Counted from the first letter of the stretch, positions 156 to 64,000 are shown. The stretch: DNA of 64,000 nucleotides from a virus (IMGVR_UViG_3300020049_006862:32001-96000), one strand, 5' to 3'. The notes: generated by a model not told the origin, from the sequence alone. Program-made: numbers and translations.

Positions 156-1130
156 ATGACTTTCACAGACTTTTATACACCATCAAAACAAGAGATCCTT
201 AACAAAGTAACCGAAGAATCTATCTTCGAACATTTCTTAAACATAGCAGTAGTTCCTGGGCTTATTAATAGCCCATTCAGGCCGGATTCAAATCCATCCT
301 GTTCCTTCTTACGACTTAGAAATGGTGTACTTTGCTTAGTTGATTGAACTAACTATAATTTCATAGACTGCTTCAAAGCAGTGGCTATGAAAAGGAATTG
401 CCATTACAATGAGGCAATAAGAGCTGTCTATGAAGCTATGGATCAGCTACGCCCGACTAAGATTGAATTCACAAATAACTCCGACAATTATTCACTTAAG
501 ATTAAGCTCAAGGAATGGGACGAGGAATCTAAAGCATATTGGCGCAGGTACTATATTAGTGATAATACTCTTACTAAATTTTCGGTATATCCTGTAAGAG
601 GAGCTTCTATGTCTAGACCAGAATATACTAAGTCTTGGAAATGGTCTAAAGAAGAGCCTATGTTTGCCTATCTTAGAATGAATGGCATCAAACTATATCG
701 TCCTCATTCTGATAAAAAAAGTAAGTGGCGTTCGTCTAATTGGGGAGACGCGCTATTTAATTATCACAATCTTCCGCCCAAAGGTGATGTTCTTATTATT
801 ACTTCTTCCGCTAAAGATGCTATGGTTCTAACCGAATGCGGTTTCCATGCTGTAGCCCCTCCTTCTGAGACAGTTAACATTCCAGAAGATATTGTTGCCG
901 AGCTTAAGTCTCGCTTCTCTCATATCTTTATCTTTATGGATACAGATGAAGCTGGCACTAAAGCCAATATTAAGTTATCCAATATTTTTAATTGTTCCTA
1001 TATTATCATACCTAGTAAATACCACAAAAAAGATATTTCTGATTTTATTTATAAACACGGCCCAGTCAAAACCTTTAGATGCCTAAAGCAATGGATGGTC
1101 CGATCAACCACGAAAAATTATGTCTATTAA
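156..1130 (+). CDS. DNA primase (DnaG-like; Zn-finger-like N-terminus plus TOPRIM), 324 aa, one TGA=Trp at 345
   Basis: ORFs 156..347 and 381..1130 join in frame through TGA (LVD-W-TNYNFIDCFKAV). Motifs SPFRPDSNPSCS, LIITSSAKDAM, FMDTDEAG resemble crAss-type primases. Confidence 0.88.
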
Positions 1131-1275
1131 CGAGGAAAGACTTGCTCAGGTTAAGTCTATGATGGAGACTATCCAAAGAGTCATTACAGATCCGGAAATG
1201 CCTGAATTTCTAAGAGAAGATTTGGAACGCCGGGTTGAAAATGCGCGAGATCTTTTAAATGATATAAAACTTTAA
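1120..1275 (+). CDS. Small hypothetical protein (51 aa)
   Basis: MSINEERLAQVKSMME...DIKL* fills the primase-UDG gap with tight spacing. Confidence 0.6.
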   Translation: MSINEERLAQVKSMMETIQRVITDPEMPEFLREDLERRVENARDLLNDIKL

Positions 1276-1277
1276 TT

Positions 1278-1928
1278 ATGCCTACTAATTGGTCTTTAAT
1301 CGAAGGTCTTAAACCTGCTTGGGATTGTTTTATAACGAAAATATATCCTGAATTCATACAAATGGATGCTCAGAAAATGTGCCCACCACCTCAGAAAGTA
1401 CTTAGAGCATTGCAGGAAACTGATATGGAGCAGATAAAAGTGGTAGTTTTGGGAATGGACCCTTATCATAACGGAGCTGCAACCGGGCTCTGCTTTCATG
1501 TAGAGGAAGGTGCTAAAATTCCTGGATCATTAAGAAATATTCAGAGTAAAATATACGAAGAGACTGGGCAAAAAGGAGATTTAGCTTCGTGGCCAGGGCA
1601 AAATGTGTTAATGTTAAATACGGCCCTTACTACTCAAAGAGGTGTGGCAGGAGCAAACATGAAATTATGGGAACCTTTTACTGAAGAAGTACTGAGGTAT
1701 TTGGATACACAAGACGATATCGTATGGCTTCTTTGGGGAGCTAACGCAAGAGACATAGTGAAGAGGATTATCAAGAATCCGACTCACCGATTTATCATTT
1801 CATCACATCCTTCTCCACTGAGTTATCATAAGCCTCTTGGGAAATATCCTGCTTTTAAGGATAGCGTTCCCTTTGGAAAGGCGAATAAGATCTTGGCGGA
1901 AAAAGGTAAAACACCTATACAGTGGTAG
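1278..1928 (+). CDS. ung: Uracil-DNA glycosylase, family 1
   Basis: Motifs KVVVLGMDPYH, ATGLCF, SLRNI, VLMLNTALT, LLWG, SHPSPLS. Confidence 0.95.
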   Translation: MPTNWSLIEGLKPAWDCFITKIYPEFIQMDAQKMCPPPQKVLRALQETDMEQIKVVVLGMDPYHNGAATGLCFHVEEGAKIPGSLRNIQSKIYEETGQKGDLASWPGQNVLMLNTALTTQRGVAGANMKLWEPFTEEVLRYLDTQDDIVWLLWGANARDIVKRIIKNPTHRFIISSHPSPLSYHKPLGKYPAFKDSVPFGKANKILAEKGKTPIQW

Positions 1929-4532: not shown

Positions 4533-5635
4533 TGGAAACCTACAGAGACATAACTTGCAAACTCAGATCAACAACACCGTTTACCGTTAGCGGTAAAACC
4601 ATTACAGGCAGAGAGGGGAAGTTTGAATTCGACCCTTTGAAAGATGCAATGGTGAATGGTGTCTACGTAAAAGGTGTTACTCTCGAGCTACTTGAGGATA
4701 AGCCTTGGAACCACAATGTATATATGTATGCTGATCCAAAACTACATTTAAATATTGATCAGGATACAATTGACCGAAATAAGATGTTCTACTCCAGCCA
4801 GATTACTGGAAATCCTAAGTTTGTATACGATAAGCCTTACGTAACTTTGAAAAAAGAGTACGAAGGATTAAAGTATTTGACTGAAAAGATAACAACAATT
4901 TGGAGTAGTGGAGTGAATCAATTGTATCCGAACGAAATTCTGTACCGGTTAGGGGGACACTTAAACATAGACATTACTGGCTATTGCGTGAAAACAAAAG
5001 ATTATTATGATCCTACCATTTTTCAAGCGGTTCATCAGTTGTCTGAATTTATCCAGTCAAAAGGATCTTACCGGAGAAACTTCGTCAAAGTTCAAGGACT
5101 TACTGCCCACGAATTAGTCGCAGTTTACACAACATTTTGGAAAGTGCAGGACGCAATAAGAGAGTTTATTCCTCCTTCACTTTGCGCAAAACGGCAACCT
5201 TTCTTAGGAAACGGTCATGATGATTTAATCTTGAAAAGATGGCGTAAGCTGTCCGCTCTCGATTCTCAGTTTCCGCTCACCATCGACTCAGATGGTGCAG
5301 TGACATTTAGCTCCCACCCCGCAACGCCCTGTTGCTTTAGGACAATCGCCTGGCTAACTATCTGTTTAGCCATTGTCCAATACGCTAAATATCATTCTGA
5401 CGAAATCATCATATCCGTAGCTATGGGGTACAAAACTTCCCTTACTCGCGACATACTGAAGTGGGCCGAACAACAATGCACTACTACTGAAGCTACTGAA
5501 TTGCTTCAGAAGATAACTCGGTATGTTCATAACGAAAGTGACGAGCATATCCGAATATTGACCGAAGTACCTCTTCCACAAAGAATGAGATACTACGAAG
5601 ATAATTATTTTGATAAACCCTATAATGAAATATAA
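4529..5635 (+). CDS. Amidoligase (COOH-NH2 ligase)-like protein with degenerate motifs
   Basis: GGHLNI corresponds to CGxHVH; AVTFSSHPAT..FRTIAWLTICLAIVQYA corresponds to TxEFRxHxxT..KI..W..IC.A.V.YA; gene context agrees. Confidence 0.55.
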   Translation: MMETYRDITCKLRSTTPFTVSGKTITGREGKFEFDPLKDAMVNGVYVKGVTLELLEDKPWNHNVYMYADPKLHLNIDQDTIDRNKMFYSSQITGNPKFVYDKPYVTLKKEYEGLKYLTEKITTIWSSGVNQLYPNEILYRLGGHLNIDITGYCVKTKDYYDPTIFQAVHQLSEFIQSKGSYRRNFVKVQGLTAHELVAVYTTFWKVQDAIREFIPPSLCAKRQPFLGNGHDDLILKRWRKLSALDSQFPLTIDSDGAVTFSSHPATPCCFRTIAWLTICLAIVQYAKYHSDEIIISVAMGYKTSLTRDILKWAEQQCTTTEATELLQKITRYVHNESDEHIRILTEVPLPQRMRYYEDNYFDKPYNEI

Positions 5636-6014
5636 GAATAAAATCAGTGGAGGCTTCAGATCCGGACTTGAAGAATGATGCTCGGAACACCTACACAAAA
5701 ACGATATCAAATTCTGGTATGAGGGTAAAAAGTTTACTCTTGTACCAGGATTTGAATCGACTAGTCCCTCATTTGAAGTAGTCGGAAAAACTAAGAAATA
5801 TAAATCAGTTACTACTAAGATCCGTCCAATAACATATACGCCCGATTTTGTCGGGGATTCTTGAGTAATAGAGACTAAGGGATTTTTAACCCCTGACGCC
5901 AAACTCAAATGGAAGTTATTTAAAAAGTATCTAACTGATAATAAGATATTTTGTCTGTTATTCATGCCTAGAAATAGGAAGCAGATAGAAGATACAATTA
6001 ATACTATATTATGA
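5625..6014 (+). CDS. Endonuclease I-like / PD-(D/E)xK resolvase-type nuclease (missing from ORF track); TGA=Trp at 5676 and 5862
   Basis: FRSGLEE-W-C...YE...ITYTPDFVGDS-W-VIETKGF...LKWKLFKKYL. Third TGA (6012) lies in an ATGA overlap with the next gene; read-through would end at 6068. Confidence 0.85.
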
Positions 6015-7036
6015 AACACTGAGAAGATCCCAAAAGGTCAGAAATCTATTATCAAACTCCTGGAATAAGCAACTCGCTTCTAAAGCTGGTTAGCACTCCT
6101 CTACTTCTTCAACAGAAATTAAAAGGCGAGCATGTACAAGCTGACAAAGAACATTTTAGAGTAGGAAAGGCTATCGACTGTTTACTTACATCACCAGAAC
6201 TCTGAGAAGCAGAGTTTGATGTAGTATCAGCTGAACGTCCTTCCGGTCTCTTAGGCCTCTTTGCAGATAACTTGCCAGAAGGTCTAACACCTCTCTCCTC
6301 GCTCGAGCTATACGAAGAAGCATACAATGCTTCGGGCTTCAAGCTTCCACTAGAAAGAGTAGTTAACATCTTCTGATCTAAAGGTGATAATGTATTTTAC
6401 TATGAGAAAAAATACGAAAAATCAAACAAAACCATCTTATCACGAGGTGAGATGGAGAAGGTCGAACTTGCAGTAGATCAGCTAAAGAAGGCTGATTATA
6501 CACACAAGTATTTTTGGCCTGCTGATAACACACGATTGATTACTCAAGTACCCATATACTTTAAGTACAAAGATTTAGATTGTAAAGGCCTTCTTGATGG
6601 CATCGTTATTGATGACGAAAAGAAAACTATACTTCCGTATGATTTGAAATCGTCTTCTTGGGGAATTAGAAACTTCCCTCTCGTTTATAAAAGATTTAAA
6701 TACTATAGACAAGCAGCGTTTTATCAACACGCTGTTCTTAATCATTTTATTCCAGAAGAAAATTTACAAGGTTACGAACTATTACCATTCACTTTTATAG
6801 TGACTTCCTCGAAACGAGGAATACCGGAAATGCCTATTATCTATAAAGTAGAATCTCAGGACTTCAGATTTGGTATGCAGGAAATAGATGACGCAATAGA
6901 ACAATATAAGTGGCACGTAGAGAACAACTACTTTGACATGTCTAAGGAGCAGTTTGAAAACAGCTCCGAATATTGGGTTAGTTATTTTTCACCCTCGAAA
7001 GAGGATCAAATCTTTGAAGATGAAACAATCAGTTAA
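6011..7036 (+). CDS. PD-(D/E)xK exonuclease (RecE/ExoVIII-like), 341 aa; TGA=Trp at 6020, 6203, 6374
   Basis: Continuous frame from ATG 6011 (ISNSLLK, FRVGKAIDCLL) into track ORF 6452..7036 (KGLLDGIVID, YDLKS, YYRQAAFY). Confidence 0.85.
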
Positions 7037-7259
7037 TGACAAGATTCTTGAACCAATAGTAACATCTGCTTACTTTGGATTTTTTGCTTTCTGGATCGTG
7101 CGATGCTTTCCAACTAGATGGGATTTCGCCGCAAATCGATATAACGAACATATTGTATGGGGAAGATTTGGAATGGAAGCTTGCGGAATCGCATTCTTAT
7201 GCGTATTTATTTACGTAATAATTACTGTTTTTGAAGAAGCACACAAAAAATACAACTAA
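7020..7259 (+). CDS. Small membrane protein (two predicted TM segments)
   Basis: ATG 7020 in the frame of track ORF 6933..7259; two hydrophobic stretches. Confidence 0.6.
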   Translation: MKQSVNDKILEPIVTSAYFGFFAFWIVRCFPTRWDFAANRYNEHIVWGRFGMEACGIAFLCVFIYVIITVFEEAHKKYN

Positions 7260-7261
7260 CG

Positions 7262-7495
7262 ATGAATGGCTTTAGAACAACCCAGAAAAATTTGTCTCGC
7301 TTCATTAAAGAGCAAGGAGAGTTAATTCTTTGGTCTATGTACTCTTTAGTACCTATAGGCGTCAGTATGGCTATCTGCGACATGCGTGAATTGCATTTTG
7401 GGTGGAGGCTTGCTTTGTGTGCAGGTACATTTTGCTTGGCGATGCGCTTTGGGGCTGGAATTAGATGGATCGTTGTTAACAGAGAACGCGATTAA
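7262..7495 (+). CDS. Small membrane protein (two predicted TM segments)
   Basis: 77-aa ORF with two hydrophobic stretches, followed by a terminator. Confidence 0.6.
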   Translation: MNGFRTTQKNLSRFIKEQGELILWSMYSLVPIGVSMAICDMRELHFGWRLALCAGTFCLAMRFGAGIRWIVVNRERD

Positions 7496-7519
7496 AAATA
7501 TAGTGTAGGTGATGAGAGG

Positions 7520-7552
7520 AGGGGTAGCATCGAAAGGTGTTGCCCCTTTTTT
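7520..7552 (+). terminator. Rho-independent terminator
   Basis: GGGGTAGCATC-GAAA-GGTGTTGCCCC followed by TTTTTT. Confidence 0.85.
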
Positions 7553-7604
7553 ATTTTAGTTAACTTATTCCACTAAAGCTTTTTACTATTAAAAAAGAAT
7601 TATT

Positions 7605-8105
7605 ATGGAAAAAAAGAAATTGAATAAGAGTGCAGCCTTCGTGTTGCCTCGGACTGGTTTGGATTATACCAAGTTGGTAGGGTTGGGAATCGATAATACT
7701 TATTTGTTCTCGACAAATTCAACAGAACCAGAGATGCACGTAGTGGTCAGTTCTACACTGACTCCTGAACAAGATCAATGAATGAAAACTGCTGGAAAGA
7801 ACTATAAAGAAACACGCACTCATCAGGAGAAGCCTGTGTACGTATACTCTTTCACGGAGGAGGACCAAAAGAATATTGTGACTCCGTTTCTCAAAGGAAA
7901 GTATTCAGAAATTGATCGTGACTATGTAAAAACATTTGACCGTTGGCAAGTTGTTGACGGTTTCTACGAACCCTCTAAGACATACATGATCTTTACTAAA
8001 GATACTCGTCTGAAAGAAGATTGGGAACAAAAGATTGGAGTGGAATTCACAGATGAACAAGAGGTATGGTCTCGACCTTTAATCGAGAATGAAACCTTAG
8101 CCTAG
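7605..8105 (+). CDS. Hypothetical phage protein, 166 aa; TGA=Trp at 7779
   Basis: ATG 7605 (MEKKKLNKSAAFVLP...) is in frame with track ORF 7782..8105 across one TGA. Confidence 0.75.
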
Positions 8106-8166
8106 TTTGGAGCCGCCTCATTAGCGGTGATTTCTCTACGGAGGAATCTAAGGAGTATAAAAACAG

Positions 8167-8204
8167 AAGGGGTAGTACCGATTGTATGGTACTACCCCTT
8201 TTTT
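8167..8204 (+). terminator. Rho-independent terminator
   Basis: AAGGGGTAGTACC-loop-GGTACTACCCC followed by TTTTTT. Confidence 0.85.
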
Positions 8205-8237
8205 ATTCTAGTAAATTCACTTATAAATAAATCTATT

Positions 8238-9122
8238 ATGACAAAAACACAGCAAACTTGGAGAATTGTTTCATTGATTTGTGCTTCTAATCGAGAGAAG
8301 AAGCGTCCAGCATTGTTTTGCGAAGCGATATCTTTTTTGGAAGAAGAAGGATATGTGTGGGATCCAAAAAGATCGAAATGGTATACTGAACAGGATCTTT
8401 GCAAAGAAATTGTACGGCTAGTAATGCTTGGACAGGATGATTCAAGGAATAAGATCATTATGGATACCATTGTAAAAGCTTTGGATGAAGCCGAACAAGA
8501 AAGTAAAAATCTGGCGGACGCTATTCGGAGAAATGGTATTCACGTACTGCGACAAGAGCCGTATGCTGATCACGAAATCAACAGAGAACCTGTTGTTGAA
8601 AATCCGCCATACGCTGGGAACGTACTTACTACTGAAAATGTTTGGCCTTCTCTTTATCCGAATGCTCCTGAAGAACCTTACGTAGAGCCAGTTGTGGAAG
8701 AATCACCGGTAGAATACTACGAAGCAGCACAGATAAGTGAAGAACCGTTACAAATTTCGTACAAACCCGAAGAAATTATTGAAGTGGATGCTCGATTATT
8801 TGTTCGCACCAATAATATGTTGGGCGAGTTTTCAAAATGGATTATGTCTGCAGAACGTAACGTTCTTATCAGTAATCACGCATTCCTTCAGTCACAAGGA
8901 TTTCACTACGGAGACTGCGGATGGGAAAAAGTAGAAAAAGGGCCAGACAAAGAAGTCGAATCCCCGGCAGAAGCCTACTACGAGGTAGCAGATTCTGACA
9001 AAGAAATTAAATGGACGTTTGAAAACCGATATTTGAACTCTCAGTACTTGGGCGAACTCGACGGTAAAAGAATTTCACCGGAAGACGAGCTTGATCTGAC
9101 TCAAGAAACATTCACACTTTAA
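8238..9122 (+). CDS. Hypothetical acidic protein
   Basis: Track ORF 8127..9122; start moved to ATG 8238, after the terminator and an AT-rich leader. Confidence 0.7.
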   Translation: MTKTQQTWRIVSLICASNREKKRPALFCEAISFLEEEGYVWDPKRSKWYTEQDLCKEIVRLVMLGQDDSRNKIIMDTIVKALDEAEQESKNLADAIRRNGIHVLRQEPYADHEINREPVVENPPYAGNVLTTENVWPSLYPNAPEEPYVEPVVEESPVEYYEAAQISEEPLQISYKPEEIIEVDARLFVRTNNMLGEFSKWIMSAERNVLISNHAFLQSQGFHYGDCGWEKVEKGPDKEVESPAEAYYEVADSDKEIKWTFENRYLNSQYLGELDGKRISPEDELDLTQETFTL

Positions 9123-9132
9123 AATAAACACA

Positions 9133-9474
9133 ATGGCAATCGAACTTAAAGATTACGACAAACCATTCATCATTGTTCTTCCAGACCCGTTCTCAGAATA
9201 CGGATATTTGGTAGCATCAATCTTATTTCCCGTTGCTTGGGAAGATCCAGACCTGAAACCTGAAGGAGACAAAATTGCTCCTTTGGAAGAATGCGGGCAG
9301 ATTGAATACATGGGAAGAACGGACGAAGAGAACTTTGTACTTTATGCTCTCACTACACTTGATGAAGATCGAATTCCTCAAACCAACACATACGAAACCA
9401 GAGAAGAGGCTTTGGAAGCCGCTACGAACGTTATTCGTAACCTCGGTTACACTGGCGAAATCCTGGAGAAGTAA
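9133..9474 (+). CDS. Hypothetical protein
   Basis: 113-aa ORF with a TAATG overlap to the next gene. Confidence 0.7.
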   Translation: MAIELKDYDKPFIIVLPDPFSEYGYLVASILFPVAWEDPDLKPEGDKIAPLEECGQIEYMGRTDEENFVLYALTTLDEDRIPQTNTYETREEALEAATNVIRNLGYTGEILEK

Positions 9475-9824
9475 TGGACTTGGAAACAGCGTTAGCATCA
9501 ATTAACGATGAGAGTCTCTGGGACCTCGTGGATTACCTCGAATGCCAGACAAAGATAACTACTCCTCCAGCACTACATGCTTTAGTGGAATTAACCTACG
9601 GATGCGAAGAAATGAGCAATGCTTGGGACATTGCTCAGGAAGTTTTTGGAGAGCCGGTAGAAAATTGTAAATTTTGTCCTATTGTCCACCCAATGATAGA
9701 AAGATTAAAACCTGTAGTCATTGAATGGATAAAAACTGTAGACTGGGGATCTGAAAAAGAAGCATTTGAGCAAGAAGACGACGAAGAACGCGAACGAAAC
9801 GCATCGGAGGGCGGAACACAATGA
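9474..9824 (+). CDS. Hypothetical acidic protein (CxxC)
   Basis: 116-aa ORF; ends at TGA in an ATGA overlap (9857 if read through). Confidence 0.65.
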   Translation: MDLETALASINDESLWDLVDYLECQTKITTPPALHALVELTYGCEEMSNAWDIAQEVFGEPVENCKFCPIVHPMIERLKPVVIEWIKTVDWGSEKEAFEQEDDEERERNASEGGTQ

Positions 9825-9943
9825 AATATGGTCGAATTCCAATTTCACGAGAGCTAATTAGAAATAATCAGCTCTTTTTCGGGTTGATCTGGAATTACCA
9901 ATGGAATGACCTTCGAGAAGTTCAATTCTATTTAACCCAATAA
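9821..9943 (+). CDS. Small hypothetical protein (40 aa)
   Basis: MKYGRIPISRELIRNN...YLTQ* runs from the ATGA overlap to the terminator. Confidence 0.45.
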   Translation: MKYGRIPISRELIRNNQLFFGLIWNYQWNDLREVQFYLTQ

Positions 9944-44973: not shown

Positions 44974-44974
44974 A

Positions 44975-46450: not shown

Positions 46451-46451
46451 A

Positions 46452-46769
46452 TTACGATATTCTTATTACGGTTATAGTACCTCCGCATGTAGGTTCTGGA
46501 TCGACGACTGTGACAGTAATGTCACAATTGAGATTATCCAAAATACAACCTTCTACTGTAGGTAATTTTTTGATAGAATTTTCTATAGTACATACTAAAG
46601 CATCTACTACTTCACACTCTACTCTGTGAGTATAAATGAAATCGTAGTTAATAGCTCTCGCAATACTTAGACCTTTCTTAGCGCAGGACACTCCATACAT
46701 TTCTGCAAAGATATCCTCCACTACTCTGTCAAAAATATAACATTTTAATTTATTTGCATCCACAGCCAT
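46452..46769 (-). CDS. Cys-rich hypothetical structural protein
   Basis: Track ORF 46452..46931; start moved to MAVDANKLK (46769) to avoid a long overlap. Confidence 0.6.
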   Translation of the reverse strand: MAVDANKLKCYIFDRVVEDIFAEMYGVSCAKKGLSIARAINYDFIYTHRVECEVVDALVCTIENSIKKLPTVEGCILDNLNCDITVTVVDPEPTCGGTITVIRIS

Positions 46770-47271: not shown

Positions 47272-47275
47272 GTTA

Positions 47276-49466: not shown

Positions 49467-49471
49467 TTGTT

Positions 49472-53526: not shown

Positions 53527-54509
53527 TATTCGATAATTTTAGAGTTTATCTCCTTAACTAGATCTTCAATAATGGTAGCTTTCTTTGGATTGAGAATAAA
53601 GTTGATAGCCTCCGCATAAGTTTCTCCAACAACTATTGGGCCTGTTGCCTTGTTGTAGGTATAACTGCCTTGCTTCTCATAAATGATGCGGCAATCTACC
53701 GCCCTTTTAAGCAGGTAGCGAGCTTCAATTTCATCGCGTCCAGTGGCTGTTTGCATTAGTACATATAACTCTTCGAACTTGTCCAAGTTCGAACCTTGAT
53801 TAAATGTTGTTTTGTCGATAAATGAGAAAAGAATGTTGTGTATTTGTTCTTTGGTAAGATTAGTTCTAGAACTAGCTTGATCCAAAACAATAACAAATCT
53901 CTTTTTCATTTCATCGGTCATCTCAAGTGAGTGCAATGCTGCAAAAGCTTTAGACTTGCGTTCATTCTTTTGGTACTTCAATGAATCTTCTTCACTTTCC
54001 AGAGCAATATACCATCTTGCATCCGGCCATTTATGCGCACGATATTCGGTTTCGGAGTTTGCAATAAACTTAGAATCCAGGTAGACATAATAAGCCATAG
54101 CATCATCGAATTTAGATAGATCTAAAACTGTGCAGCCGTCTTTTAATTTCCAGGATGTTCTTTGGAAGTAAGTCCATTTGTCTTCTGGTAATTTCCACTC
54201 CGCTCTTTGAAGAGGCCGGTTGGTCAAATAGCCCTTGGGCAAGCCCCAACGTTGCTCCTCACGATCTTGGAGAGTCAGACGATTGTTTTCAGTATCAGTT
54301 TTTTGAATTCCATTTTCTATTCAAGGCTTGTAAGATAGTCCATTTTTCAGACCACCGTGTTGAGGGGAATAAAAAGCCTGTACACCATCTTTGCAGTGAC
54401 CCATTTTAGTCTTTTTAAGTTTCTTCCCCGTAGAAGAGCTAATCCACTCTGATAAACCTGTTGCAGTTTCTCGAGGGACGCTGTAAATAAATACTTTACT
54501 GTTATTCAT
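53526..54509 (-). CDS. Conserved crAss structural protein, 327 aa; TGA=Trp at 54321
   Basis: ORFs 54321..54509 and 53526..54242 join in frame; LKDG.TVLDLS and G.T..EAINFILNPK motifs. Confidence 0.75.
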
Positions 54510-54520
54510 ATTAGATTTTT

Positions 54521-54877
54521 TTACTCCTTCTCTTTTTTGGAGTCCTCATCCGTAATTTCGGAGAGTATTTTTTGTGCTTTCTTTGCACTTATCACTGTAA
54601 GCTTCTTGACTATGGCTAATGCCCAATCAATTAAGTGCATACCTGTAAGTCCAACTAAGAAAGCTACACCATCGTTTAGTTGGTTATATTCTGCTTCTAG
54701 AACTCTAGAAGCTAAGTGACTTAGCGGATCAGTAAGGTATGCTGCCATAAGAGTACCGGAAAAAATATAACTAAAGGCTAACCAAAAGTTCATTTTTTGT
54801 TTACTCCGCAGCAGCATTACCGTACCACCTGCTGCGCCCGCTAGAGCAGCATTTAATTTCATGTTTAAGAAAAACAT
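54521..54877 (-). CDS. Putative holin-like membrane protein (three predicted TM segments)
   Basis: AGAAGG.V, FSGTLMAAYL, VAFLVGLTG hydrophobic segments; charged C-terminal tail. Confidence 0.55.
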   Translation of the reverse strand: MFFLNMKLNAALAGAAGGTVMLLRSKQKMNFWLAFSYIFSGTLMAAYLTDPLSHLASRVLEAEYNQLNDGVAFLVGLTGMHLIDWALAIVKKLTVISAKKAQKILSEITDEDSKKEKE

Positions 54878-54909: not shown

Positions 54910-57900
54910 CTAGTCAAAATCATAAATCAATTCCGGGATTTGTTATCGTAAAGGCTTTTTATCCTCTACTTCTTACACTTCTTGTTCGTGTAAGTCCAGC
55001 ATATATTTTCCCTCTATAAAGAGGGTCGAGCACTCGTGGGAGAATTATATTTATTCATCTCCTATGCGTTACACTGTTTCTGAACCTTTCGTAATTTCAG
55101 AACTTAGCACGGTATTGGGAATCTCACCGTTCACCGTTTTTGCTCGATTTTTGACTGAGGCAAATTTCATAAGCCTGATTATATAGTTGTTAAATTCTTC
55201 GAGACTTGAATTCGATTTAGCCCTATTGCAGAATTTGCAAGATGGGGCAACATTGCCTTGAACATACCCTTTAGAAGAGTCTATTCTGTCAACGCCGTTA
55301 TGAGGTATTGAAGCTTGGCAATTTGTTTTCCTGTGTATCTGTGAAGGTTTGATACCACAGTAAGAGCATGGACTAACTATCAGAGAACGAAACTCATCTT
55401 GAGTTATTGTAAATTCTCTATTATCTTTTTTTGCACGGGCACGATAACGAACATATAAACCTCTAACATCACAATCATAAGGATCTGTGTAGTAAAATTT
55501 ATGTATATGTCCACAAGATTTGGACTTAAGATTTTTTACCGCGTCCCATTGCACTTTAAATATAGTGCCGCAAGAACATTTAACTTCCACTACAGGAATT
55601 TTATAATCTTTAAGTTTATCTTTTTTTAATGTGTATCCAGGAAAACTAAGAACTGTTAGTTCATTATATTTAAGTCCTATGAATTCTTTATAATCAGTCG
55701 TATTGTACATTTCGCTTTCAACGAAATTTTTAGGTTGTTTTTTTAATTTCAACATTTATTACAATAATTTGAGTTTTGTACATACCACAGCGTGTTACGT
55801 CTTTGATCCAGATACCAAAAGAGTCCTGTACAAAGATTTCGTAAGCACCGATTAAGCCAGCAACAGAAGCACCTTTAGCAGGGCCTGTTGGAGTCCAGGT
55901 ACCGTCGATGTGTCCCCAGCGGAAAGTGTTCTCAGTTTTCAGAACAGAGATGTTGTTGTCAACACCGTCAGAACCGAAGTCCAAGAAAGTCATACGCATA
56001 GAGTCAATTGGATACTCAGGGTATTGTGGGTGCATACGCTTGCAAGCTTTACGAGAATCGTAAAGTGGGTTACGCATAAGTGATACCTCAATACCTTCTG
56101 GGCCGTACATGGACCATTCGCATGAGCTCGTTAAACTCATACCGTACAGTTGTATCAATTCTGTACTGCTTTATGTTGCCATAAAGATTAGACTATATCA
56201 TCCTCAAAAATGAGGGTTCCCGTTTCGAGCCACTTGGCTCTACCATTATGTAAAGATTTTAAAGTAAGAGGTTTAATTCTAAGTTTGTGCTGCATAGAAT
56301 CCACTCTTCGGACATAAGGTTCTACTATTTTTATAAATTTTCTTGCTTCTCTAGTGCCACAACAAAGTTCGTAGTAAGCATTCTTTTTAACTTGATAAAA
56401 ACTAACTTTTCATACTTCATTAAAGTAATCTATAATTAATTGATTTTCTTCCTTAGATATGTTGGTATGAAGTCGGAGCATTGTTGCTCTTGTTGAACCA
56501 TCAGGATATTTTAACATCCCTAATGAGCCATCATCCATGTATCATATTGCAAGTCCTAAAGCATTGAGCTTATTTAACTGTTTGCGATTAGCAATTTTTT
56601 TAACTGGTCTATATAATATTTTTCTATATAGCTTAGTAAATTTATAAACGTTAGTTGTAAACCGATAAGCAGGAAAACCGTTAGATGTTAGAAATTTAAT
56701 TTCTGACGTTTTTATACCAGATTTTCTTAACAATTTAGCTTTCCATTCCAAGTAATCTTTCTGCTTTTCACAGTGCTGTACTCGGAGCTGTCCGTATTTA
56801 TCTAGGTTCCCATCTCCTAATATCATACTTAAGAATAAGTGTCGGGATTTTTCTTTAATCTTTGTCATACAAGTTCGAATACATATAGTATCGATTTTTT
56901 ATTTTTTAGTCGTTGAACCTTCCTCCTATAGGAGGCTTGGCTGCTGATTGTCCCGGAGGGAGATCCCAGCAATTAAAGAACTTTAATCACTACCACGGAG
57001 TAGAAATAGTGAGTGTACTGCGCACCAAAAGAAAGGTGGCGTGGGTCGCCATCGCCAGCAGAACGAGTGAAGTGGCTATCTACAGTCAAGAAAGAAGAAG
57101 CTTCGGAAGCGAGCATGTCGTGGAACATTATTGCAAAAATCTTCGAGTAGAATCGTTAATTCTACCCCGGCTTTTTTAAGCCTGCTATATATTACTATAT
57201 AGATGAGATCATATCATCCTCTTCAATTGAAGAGGTTTCCTGTTTCGGAGCACTTGCTCCTACTCCCTTTCGGGATGATCGTTGAGCGTCATACTTAGAA
57301 ATCCTTTTGCATTGAATTAAAAACTCTTTGACAGTTTGATCTCTTTTCATATAATTACAAACATTGCAACAAGCTACCGAATTATCATCAGTATAACCGC
57401 AAGTGTTATCCATTCTGTCTACTCCATTATAATATAATGGGTCTCCAGTTAGTTTATCTTTACGACTGTTTGATTTTGTTTTGCCGCAATAAAGGCAAGG
57501 AGAAAGTATTAGTTTGGTAAAAACTTCTCTTGAGAGTTCAAAAGAGTAGTTACGATCTAAAGATGCTTTCTTATAAGCATTATAGATGTATCTATATCTT
57601 TCGACATCTGTTCTGTTATCCCTATACGTTTTTACAGAACAAGAATTACAACCTACAAAACCCCTTTTATCAAAGTATCTTTGCTTATAAGCAAGATCTT
57701 TAGAAGTCATAGAAAGTTTTTTACCGCATGAACATTGTACTTCTCAAGTACCATGCCCATTATCTAACCACTTGGTTATTGTTAATTTTCCTAGTTTTTG
57801 TCCTAATTTCATTTGTATCATAATAAGTATTTTCGTTGCTGATTGTCCTCCTATTTCTAGGGTGGGAGATCCCAGCAGTTAAGGAAATTTTTCGACTTAC

Positions 57901-60022
57901 CTCACGATAAGAAGGGCCCAATGTGTTAAGCCTAATGTACCAGTGATCGCAGTTACTTTACGATTGTTAACGTTTTCACGAGAGAAGAAGATATCCATCA
58001 GATAATCTTTCAAGCGAGAAACAGTCAAAGCAGAATTGTAATATTCGCAATTATTATTATTCAGTTAGAGTCGTTAATTCTAACTCGGGAATGGTTACCC
58101 AGCTCATAGTTTCCTATGAGATTAGACTATATCATTTTCCTGTAGATGTTTATCTAAGGAAATTTCTCATTTCGAGTCACTTGACTCTACTCCCTTTCGG
58201 GATAGTCGTTGAAGGTTCCAATCATAAATTTTTTCTATATGCTTAAGAAAATCTTTAGGAGATTTAGTATACTTAGCTAGATTACAGTTTTGACAACAAG
58301 GTACTACATTATCTTGTATGTATCCTAAATTGTTGTCAAGTCTATCTATTCCAGTATAATTATAGGTCATTAGTGATGTTCTAATACAGGTATTAGTTGG
58401 TTTATCTCCACAGTATACACAAGAAGACGAAAACAATTTCGCTGCCTCCTCTAATGATAACGTAAATTCTAAACCTCTGTTTTTAGCACTTTTCCTATAT
58501 CTACAATATATAGTAGAATATTTTTCAGCACTGTTCATCTTTTGATCTCTTAAGAAGTCGTATCTACATTTTTGACATCCTGCAAAGCCTAGCTTTGCTA
58601 ATGACATACACGCTCTTGAAACAAAAGTAGTCGGGCCTTTAGCTGTATTTCCACAAGAACATTTTAGTATATATTGTCCTTTGTGACCTATTACAGTAAA
58701 TTCACCTATTTTAGTGCCTATTGGATATTTCATAATTTATTTTTTAGCTTCCCTGCTGATTGCCCCTATTTTTAGAATTGTTACAGTTTATTGTATCTAA
58801 AACTTAGCGGGGGGTCCCAGCAATTAGAGAAATTATTCGATTACTATTACTAGTAAAAGGGACCAAATATTAATCCAAGAATCTTTAAGTTGTTCGCGTA
58901 CACCTGGCAGTGTGTTGTTCCCTTTCGTTCGTTAAACGAAAGGCGTACTATCCAACTTTAAATAGTACTGCCTTATATTACTATAAGGATCAGGTCATAT
59001 CACCTTCCTATTAGGAAGTTTCCCGTTTCGGATTCACTTGAATCCTACGCCATAAAGGCTGACCGTCGAACGTTCCCTTTTCAGGGCTTCGCTGCTGATT
59101 GTCCTCTTCATAAGAAGTAGGAGATCCCAGACAATTAGAGAAATTTGCAATATTGTATTACTACAATATGGGGCCCAATTTGACCCGTTTTGATCCAGTA
59201 GCCTGACTGCGAAGGACGAGTTTGCTTGATACCTAACCAACCTTGATATTCCTGAGACATGTACATTTCAGAGTACATGCGAGATTCAGCCATAGGAAGG
59301 AAAGAGTTAACTTTCTTCATCTTCTGAGTGTGAGGATCAGTGTACAGGAATTCTACGCCCAATCGGCCGCCTTCTCTCCAAGCTTTGTCAGTGATCGTCA
59401 GTTTCTGAGCGAATTCACCAATTTGGCTTTCCAGTTTGAACAGGTTAGGAGATTGTTGTGTACCGAAGTATGGGTTAGCTTCTTGCTGAACAGAGGTCCA
59501 TCCTTTAGAAAATTCACGACCTACTTCCAAAAGTGAAGGAGGGCAGAAAACTGTAGGATTGTCACCTTGCAGTTCGAGGGTGTAGATGTAACCTGTGCCA
59601 TCTGGAACAGAATCACCGATGATAGCCATCGGGTAAGAGTTATCTTCACCAAGCAGAACATCTGGTTGTGCGTAATAGTCGATGTCCAATTTTACACGGA
59701 AACGTGTATTGTTTAAGCCCGGAGCGTCGTTGCCTGCTTCGAGATTCTCGAGAACAATAGCAATACGTTCTTCAGCTCCCTGCATAGTCCAGCGGAACAC
59801 ATCGCTGTTGATCATTTGAACATTGCCTGGGTTGATACCTTGAGCAGTCAGCAATTTACCTGTGAACAGGTCTGACTGAGAAGAATAAATTTTTGTGAGG
59901 GTGCCCATGAATTCATGCGGCTTGCCCGTGTCATAAGCAGCGCCAAGATAATTGGAGTCGATAAAATTACCCCCAAATCCTTGGTAGTGCTTGATAATCA
60001 TGTTACTTCTAGCGCTAGCCAT
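54910..60022 (-). CDS. Major capsid protein, 489 aa after splicing six exons: 60022-59183, 58907-58873, 58047-57929, 57133-57006, 56107-55784, 54933-54910
   Basis: Exons join in frame (IKTG|PGVREQLKDSWI|EYYN...TGTLG|SIMFH...FGAQYTHY|YGPEGIEV...DVTRCG|ELIYDFD*). Position follows portal and scaffold genes. Confidence 0.9.
54934..55783 (-). mobile_element. Group I intron 5 of the capsid gene (850 nt; endonuclease ORF in the P1 loop)
   Basis: 5' exon ends in U, intron ends in G; P1 CTGTGGT/GCCTCAG, P3 TCGAGC/GCTCGA, P7 GCATA/TATGC. Confidence 0.8.
55069..55755 (-). CDS. Intron-encoded HNH-type homing endonuclease
   Basis: CSCG, CSYCG, NGVDRIDSSKGY..GNV..C..CN.AK. Confidence 0.88.
   Translation of the reverse strand: MLKLKKQPKNFVESEMYNTTDYKEFIGLKYNELTVLSFPGYTLKKDKLKDYKIPVVEVKCSCGTIFKVQWDAVKNLKSKSCGHIHKFYYTDPYDCDVRGLYVRYRARAKKDNREFTITQDEFRSLIVSPCSYCGIKPSQIHRKTNCQASIPHNGVDRIDSSKGYVQGNVAPSCKFCNRAKSNSSLEEFNNYIIRLMKFASVKNRAKTVNGEIPNTVLSSEITKGSETV
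56108..57005 (-). mobile_element. Group I intron 4 of the capsid gene (898 nt)
   Basis: P1 CACTAT/GTAGTG, P10 TACGG/CCGTG, AATTGCTGGG...AATCAGCAG core, P7 GACTA/TAGTC, terminal G. Confidence 0.88.
56188..56868 (-). CDS. Intron-encoded LAGLIDADG homing endonuclease, 226 aa; TGA=Trp at 56542 and 56410
   Basis: SMILGDG, Q.DYL.WK and LGLAI-W-YMDDGS motifs. Confidence 0.88.
57134..57928 (-). mobile_element. Group I intron 3 of the capsid gene (795 nt)
   Basis: P1 GGCT/GGCC, P10 CAAT/ATTG, P3 TTTCCT/AGGAAA, P7 GATCA/TGATC, terminal G. Confidence 0.88.
57195..57821 (-). CDS. Intron-encoded HNH-type homing endonuclease, 208 aa; TGA=Trp at 57744
   Basis: GQKLGKLTI...GT-W-EVQCSCG N-terminus joins track ORF 57195..57710 (CLYCG, NGVDRMDN..GY..DN..ACC..CN.MK). 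Confidence 0.85.
58048..58872 (-). mobile_element. Group I intron 2 of the capsid gene (825 nt)
   Basis: P1 GGAT/GTCC, P10 CGAATAT/ATATTTG, P3 TTTCTC/GAGAAA, P7 GACTA/TAGTC, terminal G. Confidence 0.88.
58122..58733 (-). CDS. Intron-encoded HNH-type homing endonuclease (ends 58167 if TGA is a stop, 58122 if Trp)
   Basis: CSCG, CVYCG, GIDRLDNNLGY..DNVVPCC..CN.AK. Confidence 0.85.
58908..59182 (-). mobile_element. Group I intron 1 of the capsid gene (275 nt, no ORF)
   Basis: P1 GGGT/GCCC, AATCAGCAG core, P3 TTTCTC/GGGAAA, P7 GGTCA/TGACC, terminal G. Confidence 0.88.
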
Positions 60023-61046
60023 TAGTTACTTGTTGTTTTAAAATAGTCGCTCAATCGATAGATTTTTGTGCTTGTGTAGGATTAGAGCTGCCCCCTACTT
60101 TAGCTTTTACTGAAGAGACCTCGCCTAACTTACTTTTTAAGTCTTCGAGGGCTACTGATTTTCCTTTAGATGTGAATCGACCGAAATCAAATCCAGTCTT
60201 TGGATCATATTCTGATATGATGTCTGCTAATTGAGCCAGGTGATCGTAATTACTAGAAATAGTATTCAAAGCTCTAGTGAAATCTGTTGTAGTGATACCA
60301 TCACGCGTTACAGGATTAATCATAAATGCTTTTAACTTGTTTTTACGATCATCAGGAATACTAGGAAGTTTTTCTACTGCCTGTGTAATACTTTCCCGAT
60401 ATTGTTTAGCTGCAGCTTCCTCATCTTTAAGAAGATTGTCTTGAGCTGCTTTGTAAATACCTTTTAGTTCTTCGTAAGCTTCTTCAGCCTCATCAGCCAA
60501 AGATTCAGAAAGCTCTAAAGAAGATATTAACTTATCAATCTTAACGTCAGAATAATTTCCAGTCTTTTTATAATAATCTCTAAGTATCTCTTTTTGAGTA
60601 GAGACGTTATCCAAATCAACTTCTTCTAAGGCAGAAACTTTGGTTTGGCGAGCATAGAACTCATCAATATGTTTCCCGCCCGCCATAGCGTATTCTGCAA
60701 TAGCGTGAAAACTTGGAGGCAACGAAGAAATAAGACTTTGAGCTGCTTCTGCTCTAAGACTAGTTTTAGTCTTATTCAAAGATTCAGCAATAGTTTTTAA
60801 ATCTACCTTTTCAGGTTCTTCATCGTCTACAAGAATGTTTTGTGATTTTAGGAGATTATATATGTCTTTGTAATCTGTTTCGTCCTCATCACTGTCGTCA
60901 TCTGAAGGATCTTCCGGTTCAGGAGTAGGTACGGGATTATCGATGTCGTCTATAATAGGATCATCATTTCCTAGTCCAGAAAAGTCAGGATCGAGAATCA
61001 TCCCGAAGTCAAAGACATCATCTGGTACTATATTTTCGTTATTCAT
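60015..61046 (-). CDS. Acidic scaffold-like protein between portal and capsid genes (343 aa if TGA 60051 is Trp)
   Basis: Asp/Glu/Pro-rich N-terminus and helical core; read-through gives SID-W-ATILKQQ overlapping the capsid gene start. Confidence 0.7.
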
Positions 61047-63418
61047 TATTTTGTTGTTGTTTTAGGTTTAGATGCAGAGATCTTCTCTCGAGATTTCCTA
61101 TCTAATTCTTTTTGTTTAGAAGCTTGTTCAATCTTCCATTTTTCCATAGCCATGCTGTCTTCATGGATCATTGCCTGAAGCTGGAGCTTTCCTTGATCGG
61201 AATCGTTCGCTGCTGCGATAACTCTTTGGTTCATCATCTTCTCACGTTCGAGCTGCATCATAGCTTCAATCTGAGCTTGTTGTGCTTCTTGCTGAGCCCT
61301 AATTTGCTCCATCTGCTGCTCTTGGAATTTCTTCTCAGAAGCTTCAATATGCTTTTCGAGTTGAGTCGAAGACGTAGCTTTGTATAATTTAATAAGGTCT
61401 GAGAAGTTTGCTTTGTCATTTTGAATAAGCGGCTGAGCCAGATTCTTCAAATCACGGAACAGTGCTTCATCATCAACTAAAGAAGAGACAAAAACAGCGA
61501 TATCCGCATTTGTTAAATCATCAGGACTTAACTTCAAGGTTTGAATAGACAAATCATCCAGCACATATTGCTTAATAATCGACTTATTTCTCCAACAAGA
61601 GATAGCACACTGTACTAAACCATTCAAAACTTCTTCCCAAATTCTTTCGTGAGGATAAAAATAAACAGATTCAGTAATAGTAGCGCTCTGTAAGATATTA
61701 GCTTGAGCATTAGAAACAAGTTCAGCGGAGCTGATCTGCCCTTCACGCTGTCTAGTAATACCAGCAACATCAGAAATTTGAGCATCAATAGCATCTAAGA
61801 TGTTGATGTAATTTGCAATTTGCTGCGTATTAGACATATCTATAGACTGGGATACCATGCCTCTATTGTATGTACCTGCCTCTTCAGCATTACTAAGAGG
61901 ATTGAAGAATTCTATATTCATCTGTTTGAGATAATAAATAGTCTTCTCTAAACCAATTTTATCTGAGATTTGAGACATGTCAAACTTGTATACCTTACCC
62001 TGATCTGTAGCAATAAGCTTCTTAAACTTATCCATAACAATCAAGTACAGATACTGGAAAGGACGCATACGATCCATTAACGAAACATTAGGTCCGTTAA
62101 GATTATTGTAAACGCAGCCATAATAGCCGAGGCTTACTTCGTACGGATTGTCTAATGATCTGTACTGGTATTCTTTAGGGCCAATATGACAGTAAATATC
62201 GGAACCAATTTTCACCGCTTGCCAAATTTGTGGAATCCATTCCCATTCTAAAGAATAGTTTTCCCAAACATATTTAGTAATTTTGTTACCCCAATGATTC
62301 TTTTCTATTGTTTTTTCGGCGGTAGCCGGAACAACAAAATCCTCAGAAACAATGTCCATTTGCTTGTCACCATATTCGTTAGTGTAAGTAATGAATCCTA
62401 CTTTCTGTAAAGATCTCCATTCTACATGCACTACAGGAATATCTCCAAGCAGAGGATTGGAATAAGCGCCTTGAATGTCGTGGTCTCCAGAACCATTTAA
62501 GTAGTTATCGTAAACATCTCTGGTCCGAACTGGAGGTTCTTTTTTGTAGAAATCTGGAAATTCGTCCATTACTCCACTTAGAGAACCTTCTAATTTTTCA
62601 ATTTCCTCTTCCGTTAGGTCATCATGAAATTGATCTATGATGTCTGAAGCTACCATTTTAGCTTTATAACCAGCGAATAAACCTTTTTGAACATACTTTT
62701 CATCCATACCTTTATAATAAAAAGTATTTAGAGTATTGAGTATTTTTACAGTAGGTTCTCCATTAATTACGCCAACCCAGATCATCTCGTCGCCGCCAAT
62801 TAAACCGTGTTTAAATCCTTCATTCTTTTTCTCCTTCAGATTATCTTTTCTAATAAGATATCCTAAGATGTCTGAAGCTAATTTTTCTCGAGCTTCTTGA
62901 TAAGTAAAGGACATATAGTGTTCTAATTCAGCTGGATCTACGAGACCTTCTGTATTTACTTCTTCGTCAGATTGTTGAATCTTTTGTACTTCCGCGCTAA
63001 TTTGCGCATTTAAGTATTTTTTTAACAGCTCCTTTTTGTGCAATTCCTTAGATCTGATGCCGTCGGAGTTAACCAAAACTGTTCTGTAGCGAAAAGGTGT
63101 TTTTAATTCCTCTCCAGTCAAAATTCCGATTTTATTCGGAGTCTTGTTGTAAGGCATAATCTGATCTTCAAACTGTCCAACTTCTACGCCAAAAGGATTT
63201 AACTCACGTTCAAAATCTTTTTGATTAATTACGTTGTTGTACAGTTGGTAGTTAGCATACTTTCGATCATAATCTGTGTTACCACCAGGAGAAGGAGAGA
63301 AAGTATTAGAATATTGAACAATGTGATCAACCATCAGTTTTGCCCACGCAAAATCATCTTTACTTTTTTCCGCGTAGCTAAGCCGCTGCTTTGGAAAAAG
63401 CGTATTCATGTTCGTCAT
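61046..63418 (-). CDS. Portal protein
   Basis: 790 aa; FPKQRL, NYQLYNN, L.GEE, W.S..KVG, EWEWI..IW, SLMDRM.PFQYLY, GITRQREGQI. Confidence 0.92.
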   Translation of the reverse strand: MTNMNTLFPKQRLSYAEKSKDDFAWAKLMVDHIVQYSNTFSPSPGGNTDYDRKYANYQLYNNVINQKDFERELNPFGVEVGQFEDQIMPYNKTPNKIGILTGEELKTPFRYRTVLVNSDGIRSKELHKKELLKKYLNAQISAEVQKIQQSDEEVNTEGLVDPAELEHYMSFTYQEAREKLASDILGYLIRKDNLKEKKNEGFKHGLIGGDEMIWVGVINGEPTVKILNTLNTFYYKGMDEKYVQKGLFAGYKAKMVASDIIDQFHDDLTEEEIEKLEGSLSGVMDEFPDFYKKEPPVRTRDVYDNYLNGSGDHDIQGAYSNPLLGDIPVVHVEWRSLQKVGFITYTNEYGDKQMDIVSEDFVVPATAEKTIEKNHWGNKITKYVWENYSLEWEWIPQIWQAVKIGSDIYCHIGPKEYQYRSLDNPYEVSLGYYGCVYNNLNGPNVSLMDRMRPFQYLYLIVMDKFKKLIATDQGKVYKFDMSQISDKIGLEKTIYYLKQMNIEFFNPLSNAEEAGTYNRGMVSQSIDMSNTQQIANYINILDAIDAQISDVAGITRQREGQISSAELVSNAQANILQSATITESVYFYPHERIWEEVLNGLVQCAISCWRNKSIIKQYVLDDLSIQTLKLSPDDLTNADIAVFVSSLVDDEALFRDLKNLAQPLIQNDKANFSDLIKLYKATSSTQLEKHIEASEKKFQEQQMEQIRAQQEAQQAQIEAMMQLEREKMMNQRVIAAANDSDQGKLQLQAMIHEDSMAMEKWKIEQASKQKELDRKSREKISASKPKTTTK

Positions 63419-63426
63419 TGCTTATA

Positions 63427-64000
63427 CTATAAAAAATTGTCACTCGTTATACGAGCGTTCGGGAATACGAATTTATTAGCCGATATAAACTTGGTGATAT
63501 CATCCACAATTTTACTATCTTCTATAATTGTTTTCTTGTATTGATTATGGGTTTCTATTAACCCTACAATACACCCCATGAATCCCATTATGGAGTCAAA
63601 GTTGCCTTCTAAATTAAAGGCAGCCATTTCTTGTAACAAGGCCCTGTCTCAGATAAAATCTATATTTCTATATGTTCTATCGTCCCTCTCAAACTTAACT
63701 TCAAGTAGCCAGTCGCGTATGTACTGAATGCCTTCCATCTTCATAACTCTAGAAGACATCGGATAACCATAAGTTACCGAAGGCCCGGTCATAAAAGATG
63801 CTTTCTTATTAAAGATAGTAGTAGGTTGTTTACAAAGCAAGTCTAACCTCTTTATCTTTTCGAAATACTCCTTCACGTTACCACGAACATTTTCGAAGTA
63901 GATCTTTGCGTTACCATAAAACAAAGAAAGCTTGTGAAGTATATCGTTCACTATATGCCTTCCCGCGTAGGGCCTACCTCTATATACTGCAACCAATTCA
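63427..64000 (-). CDS. Terminase large subunit, C-terminal nuclease part (5' truncated); TGA=Trp at 63649
   Basis: VAVYRGRP...YGNAKIYFEN...FI-W-DRALLQEM..FN.EGNFD; directly upstream of the portal gene. Confidence 0.88.

Follow-up and report, generated by a model that had tools for sequence, protein, structure and literature searches.

Whether the stop codon TGA is read as tryptophan (Trp), and by what decoder, is the question raised by the stretch of 64,000 nucleotides analysed here, which represents bases 32001-96000 of the 110,204-bp linear virus record IMGVR_UViG_3300020049_006862 (CheckV completeness ~66%) and is referred to below as the window. The genes of the first ~9,860 nucleotides are on the + strand and those from 9,995 onwards on the - strand; a first-pass annotation, made from the sequence alone, had claimed that TGA is decoded as Trp across both gene blocks. 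The best explanation of the whole, to which a probability of about 0.9 is assigned on the basis of the comparisons described below, is that UGA is decoded as Trp in middle (replication), late (virion) and homing-endonuclease genes, with TAA and, less often, TAG serving as terminators. Positions are those of the window unless marked as genome positions, and the coordinates of the genes are collected in Table 1.

Open frames across TGA and the residues at TGA columns

Every frame bounded by TAA or TAG on the coding strands (+ for 1-9857, - for 9995-64000) was listed and 48 gene models were then fixed. Together they have 59 TGAs in frame, of which the + block accounts for 14 and the - block for 45, so that the earlier figure of about 50 was correct or slightly low. 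Of the 48 genes, 28 have one TGA or more; the terminator is TAA in 41 models and TAG in the other 7, and TGA accounts for 21% of the TGA and TGG codons taken together, the other 79% being TGG. In these models the pieces separated by TGA could be rejoined with no frameshift and no TAA or TAG, as had been proposed. Beyond pieces that end in TGA under genetic code table 11, the run free of TAA and TAG has a median length of 261 codons, as against 13 codons beyond true TAA/TAG stops (n = 26 versus 31, Mann-Whitney P = 1.8e-6), and the stretches past TGAs, short tails included, show coding-like codon usage. The comparison of coding densities suggested in the first-pass annotation gave 96.8% with TGA read through versus 87.8% under table 11 for the same frames; since table 11 already yields 88-90% coding, the recoding is inconspicuous from density alone. 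Pfam and PHROG matches cross TGAs in the primase, endonuclease I/DUF1064, DUF3799 exonuclease, GIY-YIG, LAGLIDADG_2, ring-1 and TerL genes, and the C-terminal domain of the muzzle protein lies beyond two TGAs.

The residue encoded was assessed by gathering homologue residues at 26 TGA columns, of which 15 have a Trp majority and five a Tyr or Phe majority, while none is dominated by Gly or by Cys. Summed over the 26 columns, BLOSUM62 scores are +147 for Trp, +48 for Tyr, +24 for Phe, -55 for Cys, -56 for Ser and -59 for Gly. The alignment of homologues at TGA columns, which the first-pass annotation had named as the way to separate Trp from Gly or Cys, thus returned mostly Trp, with Gly or Cys in the majority at 0 of the 26. 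Because the TGG codons in the muzzle, exonuclease and endonuclease alignments are themselves Trp-majority in only about half of their columns, TGA is at least as Trp-like as TGG. A reciprocal swap is seen with a relative, L015 (62% identity): TGA 5862 is TGG there, and an invariant TGG-encoded Trp here is TGA there. In-frame TGAs are carried by relatives from other samples (L008, with nine in its muzzle gene, L009/L010, L012 and L015), and none was found within the called genes of L007, L011 and L013, with L007 and L013 ending at least one gene in TGA; as judged from these genomes, some but not all members of this clade are recoded. A second contig of 109,924 bp, from the Joint Genome Institute (JGI) metagenome 3300020047, differs from the window at a single position in 22,406 bases (24191-46596, 99.996% identity), which is not at a TGA, and keeps all TGAs of that stretch.

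The frame of 6177 codons at the start of the - block joins four open reading frames (ORFs) of 108, 2233, 3448 and 263 amino acids (aa), that is, two giant ORFs and two flanking pieces. A HMMER search of the whole library with a 1200-aa stretch over the middle junction identified three proteins (64%, 56% and 44% identity), each with a continuous 125-aa domain that covers all three junction TGAs, and TGAs 21490, 21385 and 21319 correspond to invariant TGG-encoded Trp in these three homologues, which translate under table 11. TGA 28204 lies inside the alignment to L011, where it is paired with Trp. The counterpart of the giant frame in L011 consists of separate TAA-ended genes (1536 aa and at least 2816 aa), and L012 has, like the window, a single frame, colinear over 3526 codons and with two TGAs of its own. 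The only domain assigned to the giant ORFs in PHROG and Pfam is an AAA_30/AAA_19 helicase-like domain.

Four of the five sites that had been put forward as examples of conserved Trp (TGAs 56544, 33347, 5862 and 44919) hold, and one (30548) fails. The LAGLIDADG motif LAI-W-YMDDG (56542; TGA 56544) aligns with the Trp of LAYWFMDDG in I-SceI, the LAGLIDADG_2 match covering residues 15-178; the muzzle motif K-W-TSFHSY (33345; TGA 33347) has Trp in 13 of 13 homologues; and the endonuclease motif DFVGDS-W-VIETKG (5862) has Trp in 42 and Phe in 12 of 55 homologues, the residue having been fixed by this 55-sequence alignment and not by alignment to T7 endonuclease I. At the GGT-W site (44917; TGA 44919) Trp is found in L007, and the TGG-encoded GGTW of a paralogue that had been adduced does exist, but that alignment covers TGA 42187 and not 44919. 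The supposed NUMOD1 motif LIKI-W-E (30546; TGA 30548) has to be withdrawn as a conserved Trp site, as its homologues have Asn, Asn and a gap and Pfam makes no NUMOD1 call.

Open frames, spanning domains and homologue columns all bear out the reading of TGA as Trp in both gene blocks. As far as sequence comparison can establish it, the TGAs are sense codons whose homologue columns are Trp or aromatic, and use of TGA as a tryptophan codon by the phage in replication, virion and homing-endonuclease genes is a well supported prediction.

A candidate decoder, the placement of TGA and rival explanations

The first-pass annotation had seen no suppressor tRNA or release factor (RF) gene in the window. 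No tRNA was found within these 64 kb, but a tRNA candidate with the anticodon UCA is present elsewhere on the contig, ~5.3 kb past the window end (genome 101332-101425 (-), L004:5332-5425). It adjoins a tmRNA (genome 100470-100928; 49 bits on RF00023, above cut-off), the two being ~400 nt apart. As read from the sequence and the minimum-free-energy fold, the candidate has a 7-bp acceptor stem (ACGUCAC/GUGACGU) with A1-U72, G73 and an encoded CCA, a 5-bp D stem with a 4-nt loop, the anticodon loop CUUCAAA, a normal T arm and an extra arm with a 5-bp stem and a 9-nt loop (variable region ~29 nt), the minimum-free-energy fold being a cloverleaf with this extra arm. The identity elements of bacterial TrpRS are G73, A1-U72 and the last two anticodon bases, and SerRS recognises a long arm with G73; the homologue columns argue for Trp. 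The rest of the genome had also been suggested as a place to look for tRNA(UCA), RF1 or TrpRS genes, and of these the tRNA candidate alone was obtained: no RF-1, PCRF or class Ib aminoacyl-tRNA synthetase (TrpRS) domain was found in the six frames of the 110-kb contig, from which about one third of the genome is missing.

In the mechanism proposed here, the decoder would be a phage-encoded suppressor tRNA, namely the UCA candidate; the host TrpRS would supply it with Trp, and it would act in competition with the host RF2. TGA-bearing genes would then give full-length protein only after this tRNA had accumulated, and the recoding may act as a timing gate, as has been proposed for other recoded phages.

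Separately from this candidate, the only canonical-looking tRNA in the contig (genome 8416-8490 (+), L001:1501-1575, 45 bits) has the anticodon ACA, an anticodon-stem mismatch and C73, an A34 anticodon for Cys codons being unusual; ARAGORN reports no other tRNA in the whole contig. It was considered as a wobble reader of UGA and rejected, as no Cys columns support it.

TGA is unevenly placed along the genome. Genome positions 1-19.6 kb (+) and 97-110 kb (-) contain 3 in-frame TGAs in ~44 gene models, and the UCA tRNA candidate is located in the 97-110 kb part. Over the whole window, the position of TGA along genes is uniform (Kolmogorov-Smirnov P = 0.60). In the + block (genome 19.6-41.9 kb), TGA is the first Trp codon in 12 of 17 TGA-bearing genes versus 5.6 expected (P ~9e-4), a bias that is sensitive to start calls and for which 3 of the 12 genes rest on TGAs in the first 20 codons; the - block shows no such bias (5 of 19 TGA-bearing genes, 7.7 expected). 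The earlier statement that replication, virion and intron-endonuclease genes are affected alike therefore stands in that all are affected and falls in that the first-Trp bias is confined to the + block. As side observations, the low-TGA flanks (genome 1-19600 and 97000-110204) may be a standard-code, early-expressed part; a purine follows 45 of 53 sense TGAs and C just one (purine after TGG, 153 of 225); and T comes next at 24 of the 48 real TAA/TAG stops.

A more structured form of recoding can be drawn from this placement, in which a long-arm tRNA(UCA) by the tmRNA would sit in a TGA-free 'code-switch' part, + genes would be gated via a first-Trp TGA, virion TGAs would be random and a few end TGAs would be leaky terminators. 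It is considered doubtful; if true, one codon would be used within a single genome as a timed gate, as an ordinary Trp codon and as a weak stop.

Several observations weigh against the best explanation and the proposed decoder. The candidate was missed by ARAGORN and by the general tRNA model, is a weak tRNA-Sec-like match in Rfam (26 bits versus a cut-off of 47), has a fold no more stable than that of shuffled sequence (z = -1.2) and combines a long variable arm with G73, a shape read by SerRS; no homologue was returned by exact-pattern scans of IMG/VR, whether for the anticodon arm with the T loop or for the D arm with the anticodon loop. Six of the 26 columns have a non-aromatic majority, being Arg (two, one of them Arg/Gln), Lys, Gln, Leu and Ser, and TGAs 30713 and 30548 of the GIY-YIG gene are not conserved Trp in three distant homologues. 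No TGA is present in the holin gene, the portal gene or the TerL part beyond the window, and a TGA-free holin, portal and most of TerL make a poor fit to a simple gate on lysis or late genes. At about six sites, finally, the TGA is followed within 4-12 codons by a TAA/TAG or falls at the junction of what may be two genes, and could still terminate.

These near-end sites lead to a reading with dual meaning, in which most TGAs are Trp and a few at gene ends (3226, 4530, 9822, 39058, 60053 and perhaps 40267) are stops or leaky stops with a nearby TAA/TAG in reserve, partial suppression yielding short and extended products. The TGAs of the + block, placed as the first Trp codon or near the gene end, and the standard-code relatives that terminate genes in TGA would agree with it, as would the stop codons with TAA shortly after that are described in the Zeta crAss-like paper (PMC12386605). 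The ATGA/GTGA overlaps at 3226 and 4530 were rejected as proof of termination; they are uninformative, since such an overlap with ATG/GTG arises wherever A, G or T stands before a TGA. Pfam matches in the genes with near-terminal TGAs do not fix the gene ends. Elsewhere the tails behave as parts of their genes: the 33-codon ring-1 tail past 36684 aligns to homologues, the 15-codon tail past 58169 aligns to the C-terminus of a paralogue, readthrough of 48051 and 49624 gives back tight junctions (a 1-nt TAATG overlap and a 5-nt gap, versus gaps of 231 and 155 nt), and the codon usage of short tails is coding-like, as given above. The dual meaning is possible but on the whole unlikely, and it supplements, and does not displace, the best explanation of UGA as Trp.

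It is very improbable that the phage just follows the code of a host which, like Mollicutes, uses table 4 with UGA as Trp, and so needs no suppressor. TGA does occur in replication as well as late genes and the contig has no RF1 or TrpRS gene, both in keeping with such a host, but TGG still supplies 79% of Trp codons, two genome parts avoid in-frame TGA, close relatives use the standard code with TGA stops, the contig has its own UCA tRNA candidate and, among cultured phages, those nearest in the portal and muzzle genes have Bacteroidota hosts (Flavobacterium, Cellulophaga, Bacteroides). These hosts use table 11. A residue other than Trp, whether Gly (table 25), Ser, Cys or selenocysteine, meets with 20 of 26 columns that are Trp, Tyr or Phe and with none of Gly or Cys majority, with summed BLOSUM62 scores of about -55 to -59 for Gly, Ser and Cys alike, with the TGA/TGG swap against L015 at invariant Trp columns, and with a 7/5 acceptor/T geometry of the UCA candidate in place of the 8/5 geometry of bacterial tRNA-Sec; even allowing for the class II or tRNA-Sec-like body of the sole UCA candidate (its long arm and G73 suggest Ser), for the anticodon ACA of the other tRNA in the contig and for Ser as the commonest residue at column 6012, such a residue is extremely improbable. 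Table 25 was rejected on 0 of 26 Gly columns and the score of -59, and selenocysteine insertion on the tRNA-Sec model score, the 7/5 fold and the absence of a Cys column; SelB and SECIS were not searched for. The contig comes from a metagenome assembly. Nothing was found in favour of the TGAs being assembly or sequencing errors or marks of decaying pseudogenes, and this reading is hardly credible, given that the second contig retains all TGAs over 22.4 kb, that 28 of 48 genes, essential ones included, are affected without TAA/TAG or frameshift, and that related phages from other samples share in-frame TGAs.

Gene content and lineage of the window

The - block represents a crAss-type virion module with portal, MCP, ring proteins, muzzle, tail genes, the C-terminal part of TerL and the two giant ORFs, so that a Crassvirales-type signature set (portal, MCP, TerL, muzzle, ring) is present in one virion block. 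The + block contains a primase, an endonuclease I/DUF1064 resolvase, a PDDEXK exonuclease and a GATase-containing module, the GATase domain (Pfam) lying in gene 3225-4553. Please refer to Table 1 for the positions and TGAs of these genes.

Table 1. Genes and gene groups with in-frame TGA in the window, and family assignments of the virion proteins
Feature	Position	Strand	In-frame TGAs	Remarks
DNA primase gene	156..1130	+	345 (residue 64)	phrog_12622 over residues 11-280 spans the TGA; Toprim (Pfam) downstream
Two coupled genes	2422-3258 and 3225-4553	+	3226, 4530 (sole TGAs)	10 and 7 codons ahead of TAA
Endonuclease I / DUF1064-type resolvase	5523..6068	+	5676, 5862, 6012	Pfam and PHROG matches span the TGAs
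PDDEXK exonuclease (DUF3799)	6011..7036	+	6020, 6203, 6374	DUF3799 and phrog_412 over residues 11-327
Three small genes	7157..9857	+	7232, 7779, 9822 (one each)	9822 is 11 codons before TAA
Single TAA/TAG-free frame, 6177 codons	9995..28528	-	28204, 21490, 21385, 21319, 10873	
630-aa protein and GIY-YIG homing endonuclease	28538..31016	-	630-aa protein: 30232, 30013; GIY-YIG: 30713, 30548	GIY-YIG and phrog_314 span residues 4-196
Muzzle gene, 1289 codons	32727..36596	-	34193, 33347, 33110	crAss_MUZ at the N-terminus, crAss_MUZ_C past two TGAs
Ring-1 gene and 161-codon gene 37451-37936	36583..37936	-	ring-1: 37104, 36684	
Tail-region genes	39044..43636	-	39044-40909: 40267, 39058; 40909-41439: 5 TGAs; 41399-43636: 5 TGAs	40909-41439 has no TGG
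Five one-TGA virion-block genes	44281..51430	-	44919, 45901, 46934, 48051, 49624	
366-codon gene	53526..54626	-	54548, 54323	
Endonuclease ORFs between MCP exons	56188..58733	-	LAGLIDADG: 56544, 56412; two HNH/EndoVII paralogues: 57746, 58169	
343-codon gene upstream of MCP	60015..61046	-	60053	TGA 12 codons ahead of TAG; coding score of the tail gene-typical
TerL C-terminal part	63427..63996	-	63651	phrog_6681 over residues 1-150 spans residue 116
Portal, MCP, TerL				phrog_6547, phrog_11589, phrog_6681, respectively
Muzzle				PF25731 and PF25729
Ring-1 and ring-2				identified via alignment to relatives whose genes match PF24228 and PF25702

Within the + block, the endonuclease alignment of 55 homologues gave Tyr in 44 at column 5676 and variable residues at 6012, and two further TGAs of the same frame, 5559 and 5586, may precede the true start. 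The exonuclease columns are Trp in 20 and Phe in 11 homologues at 6203 and Trp in 29 of 31 at 6374; a search of the exonuclease against the PDB returned nothing.

In the virion block, the muzzle protein attains its length of 1289 aa, within the 1237-1397 aa of its homologues, only with readthrough; column 34193 is Trp in 7 of 10 homologues and column 33110 is Phe in 12 of 13, the latter being a TGG-encoded Trp in the nearest, 59%-identical relative. Ring-1 has 300 aa when read through, compared with 294 aa in its nearest relative, and the same 14-nt overlap with the muzzle gene, and its residues 3-300 align to residues 2-295 of the L009 homologue through both TGAs. Column 37104 is Trp in 4 of 4 homologues, and column 36684 (residue 268) is Arg (CGT, AGA) or Gln (CAA); as the alignment past 36684 reaches the C-terminus, this site looks like a recent change to TGA that is tolerated as Trp. 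The 161-codon gene at 37451-37936, between ring-2 and ring-1, has 6 TGAs and 2 TGG codons and is invisible under table 11; its counterparts in L007 and L008 encode 149-163 aa, and the L008 copy has 3 TGAs and no TGG. Likewise invisible under table 11 is the 176-codon gene at 40909-41439, which has a weak nucleotidyltransferase match (E = 0.004). In the tail gene at 41399-43636, comparison with the standard-code L007 gave Trp at 42916, 42610 and 42187 and Leu at 43282. No family was found for the 366-codon gene in Pfam or PHROG. A holin-like gene at 54521-54877 (-), phrog_2359, is without TGA.

The MCP gene is split, with exon 1 (59135-60022, -) matching profile positions 1-263 and the last exon (55730-56158, -) positions 381-494; a group I intron (RF00028) was detected at 58971-59192, so that the gene is interrupted by at least one such intron, and a middle exon was not located within 55730-60022. 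A third HNH/EndoVII paralogue is found just downstream of MCP at 55069-55755.

The portal is ~30% identical to its best GenBank matches, which are crAss-like phages, and the muzzle is closest, at ~29% identity, to Flavobacterium and Cellulophaga phages, values that indicate a divergent crAss-like lineage. No close relatives were obtained when muzzle peptide patterns were scanned in IMG/VR, megablast of 25 kb against GenBank phages gave merely chance matches of 36-40 nt, and tblastn with a 454-aa protein (51448-52809) was without match.

For annotation, table 11 misses at least two genes entirely (40909-41439 and 37451-37936), fragments the muzzle, ring, primase, exonuclease and TerL genes and splits the 6177-codon frame into four ORFs; a functional reading of the window must therefore use TGA = Trp.

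Comparison with known recoded systems

Stop-codon reassignment in crAss-like phages had been cited in the first-pass annotation as established, which the literature confirms for replication genes and intron ORFs as well (PMC7886860, PMC12386605). Yutin et al. (2021; PMC7886860) describe 243 crAss-like phages with TAG = Gln or TGA = Trp, in most of which recoding is confined to late genes; TGAs are carried by the Zeta-group PolB and its intron ORFs, code switches occur at short phylogenetic distances and some recoded genomes are without a detectable suppressor. In phage Lera, TGA = Trp was reported in the muzzle, two ring proteins, TerL, RNAP and a helicase (Babkin et al., 2025; PMC12386605). 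Several traits link the virus studied here to the recoded phages of the Zeta, Beta and Delta crAss-like groups and to Lera. It has the Crassvirales gene set (portal, MCP, muzzle, ring); TGA occurs in the genes for the muzzle, ring proteins, TerL and replication, at sites where homologues have Trp; introns, an intein and homing endonucleases are present and bear TGA too; relatives with the standard code are found at a short phylogenetic distance; and its suppressor tRNA candidate escapes standard tools. It differs from known crAss-like phages in the low identity of its portal and muzzle, which sets it apart as a distinct lineage, from most listed Zeta genomes (17-26 tRNAs) in having two tRNA-like genes in 110 kb, and from known recoded crAss-like phages in the long variable arm of its UCA tRNA candidate. 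Recoding itself is already established for crAss-like phages; the new elements might be the tRNA shape, the block-specific placement of TGA and the lineage.

The code-change model of Borges et al. (10.1101/2021.08.26.457843) for recoded gut phages places the suppressor tRNA, alone or together with an RF and an aminoacyl-tRNA synthetase, in a standard-code region, while later genes carry the recoded stop; in that study, lysis genes were the most biased toward the recoded codon. Near-TGA-free genome parts, one of them with the UCA tRNA candidate, and TGA-bearing genes elsewhere resemble that model, and the rise in coding density of ~9 points is of the size used in that study to call recoding. 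Unlike in the model, no RF1 or TrpRS was found in this incomplete contig, replication genes are recoded too and the holin is without TGA.

Reading of UGA as Trp by a tRNA with a UCA anticodon is also known from the table 4 organisms Mycoplasma and Spiroplasma. There the recoding is cell-wide, with UGA as the principal Trp codon, whereas here TGA is a minority Trp codon, patchy among genes and probably imposed by the phage on a standard-code host. The table 25 phages of Absconditabacteria and Gracilibacteria likewise have in-frame TGA throughout genes, but with TGA = Gly, for which no Gly-majority TGA column was seen here. The window would thus add to the recoded phages a divergent crAss-like lineage whose structural genes are nearest to those of Flavobacteriia phages and in which replication as well as late genes are recoded, and its UCA tRNA candidate may represent the 'undetectable, extremely divergent suppressor tRNA' to which earlier surveys appealed for the many recoded phages lacking a recognisable suppressor.

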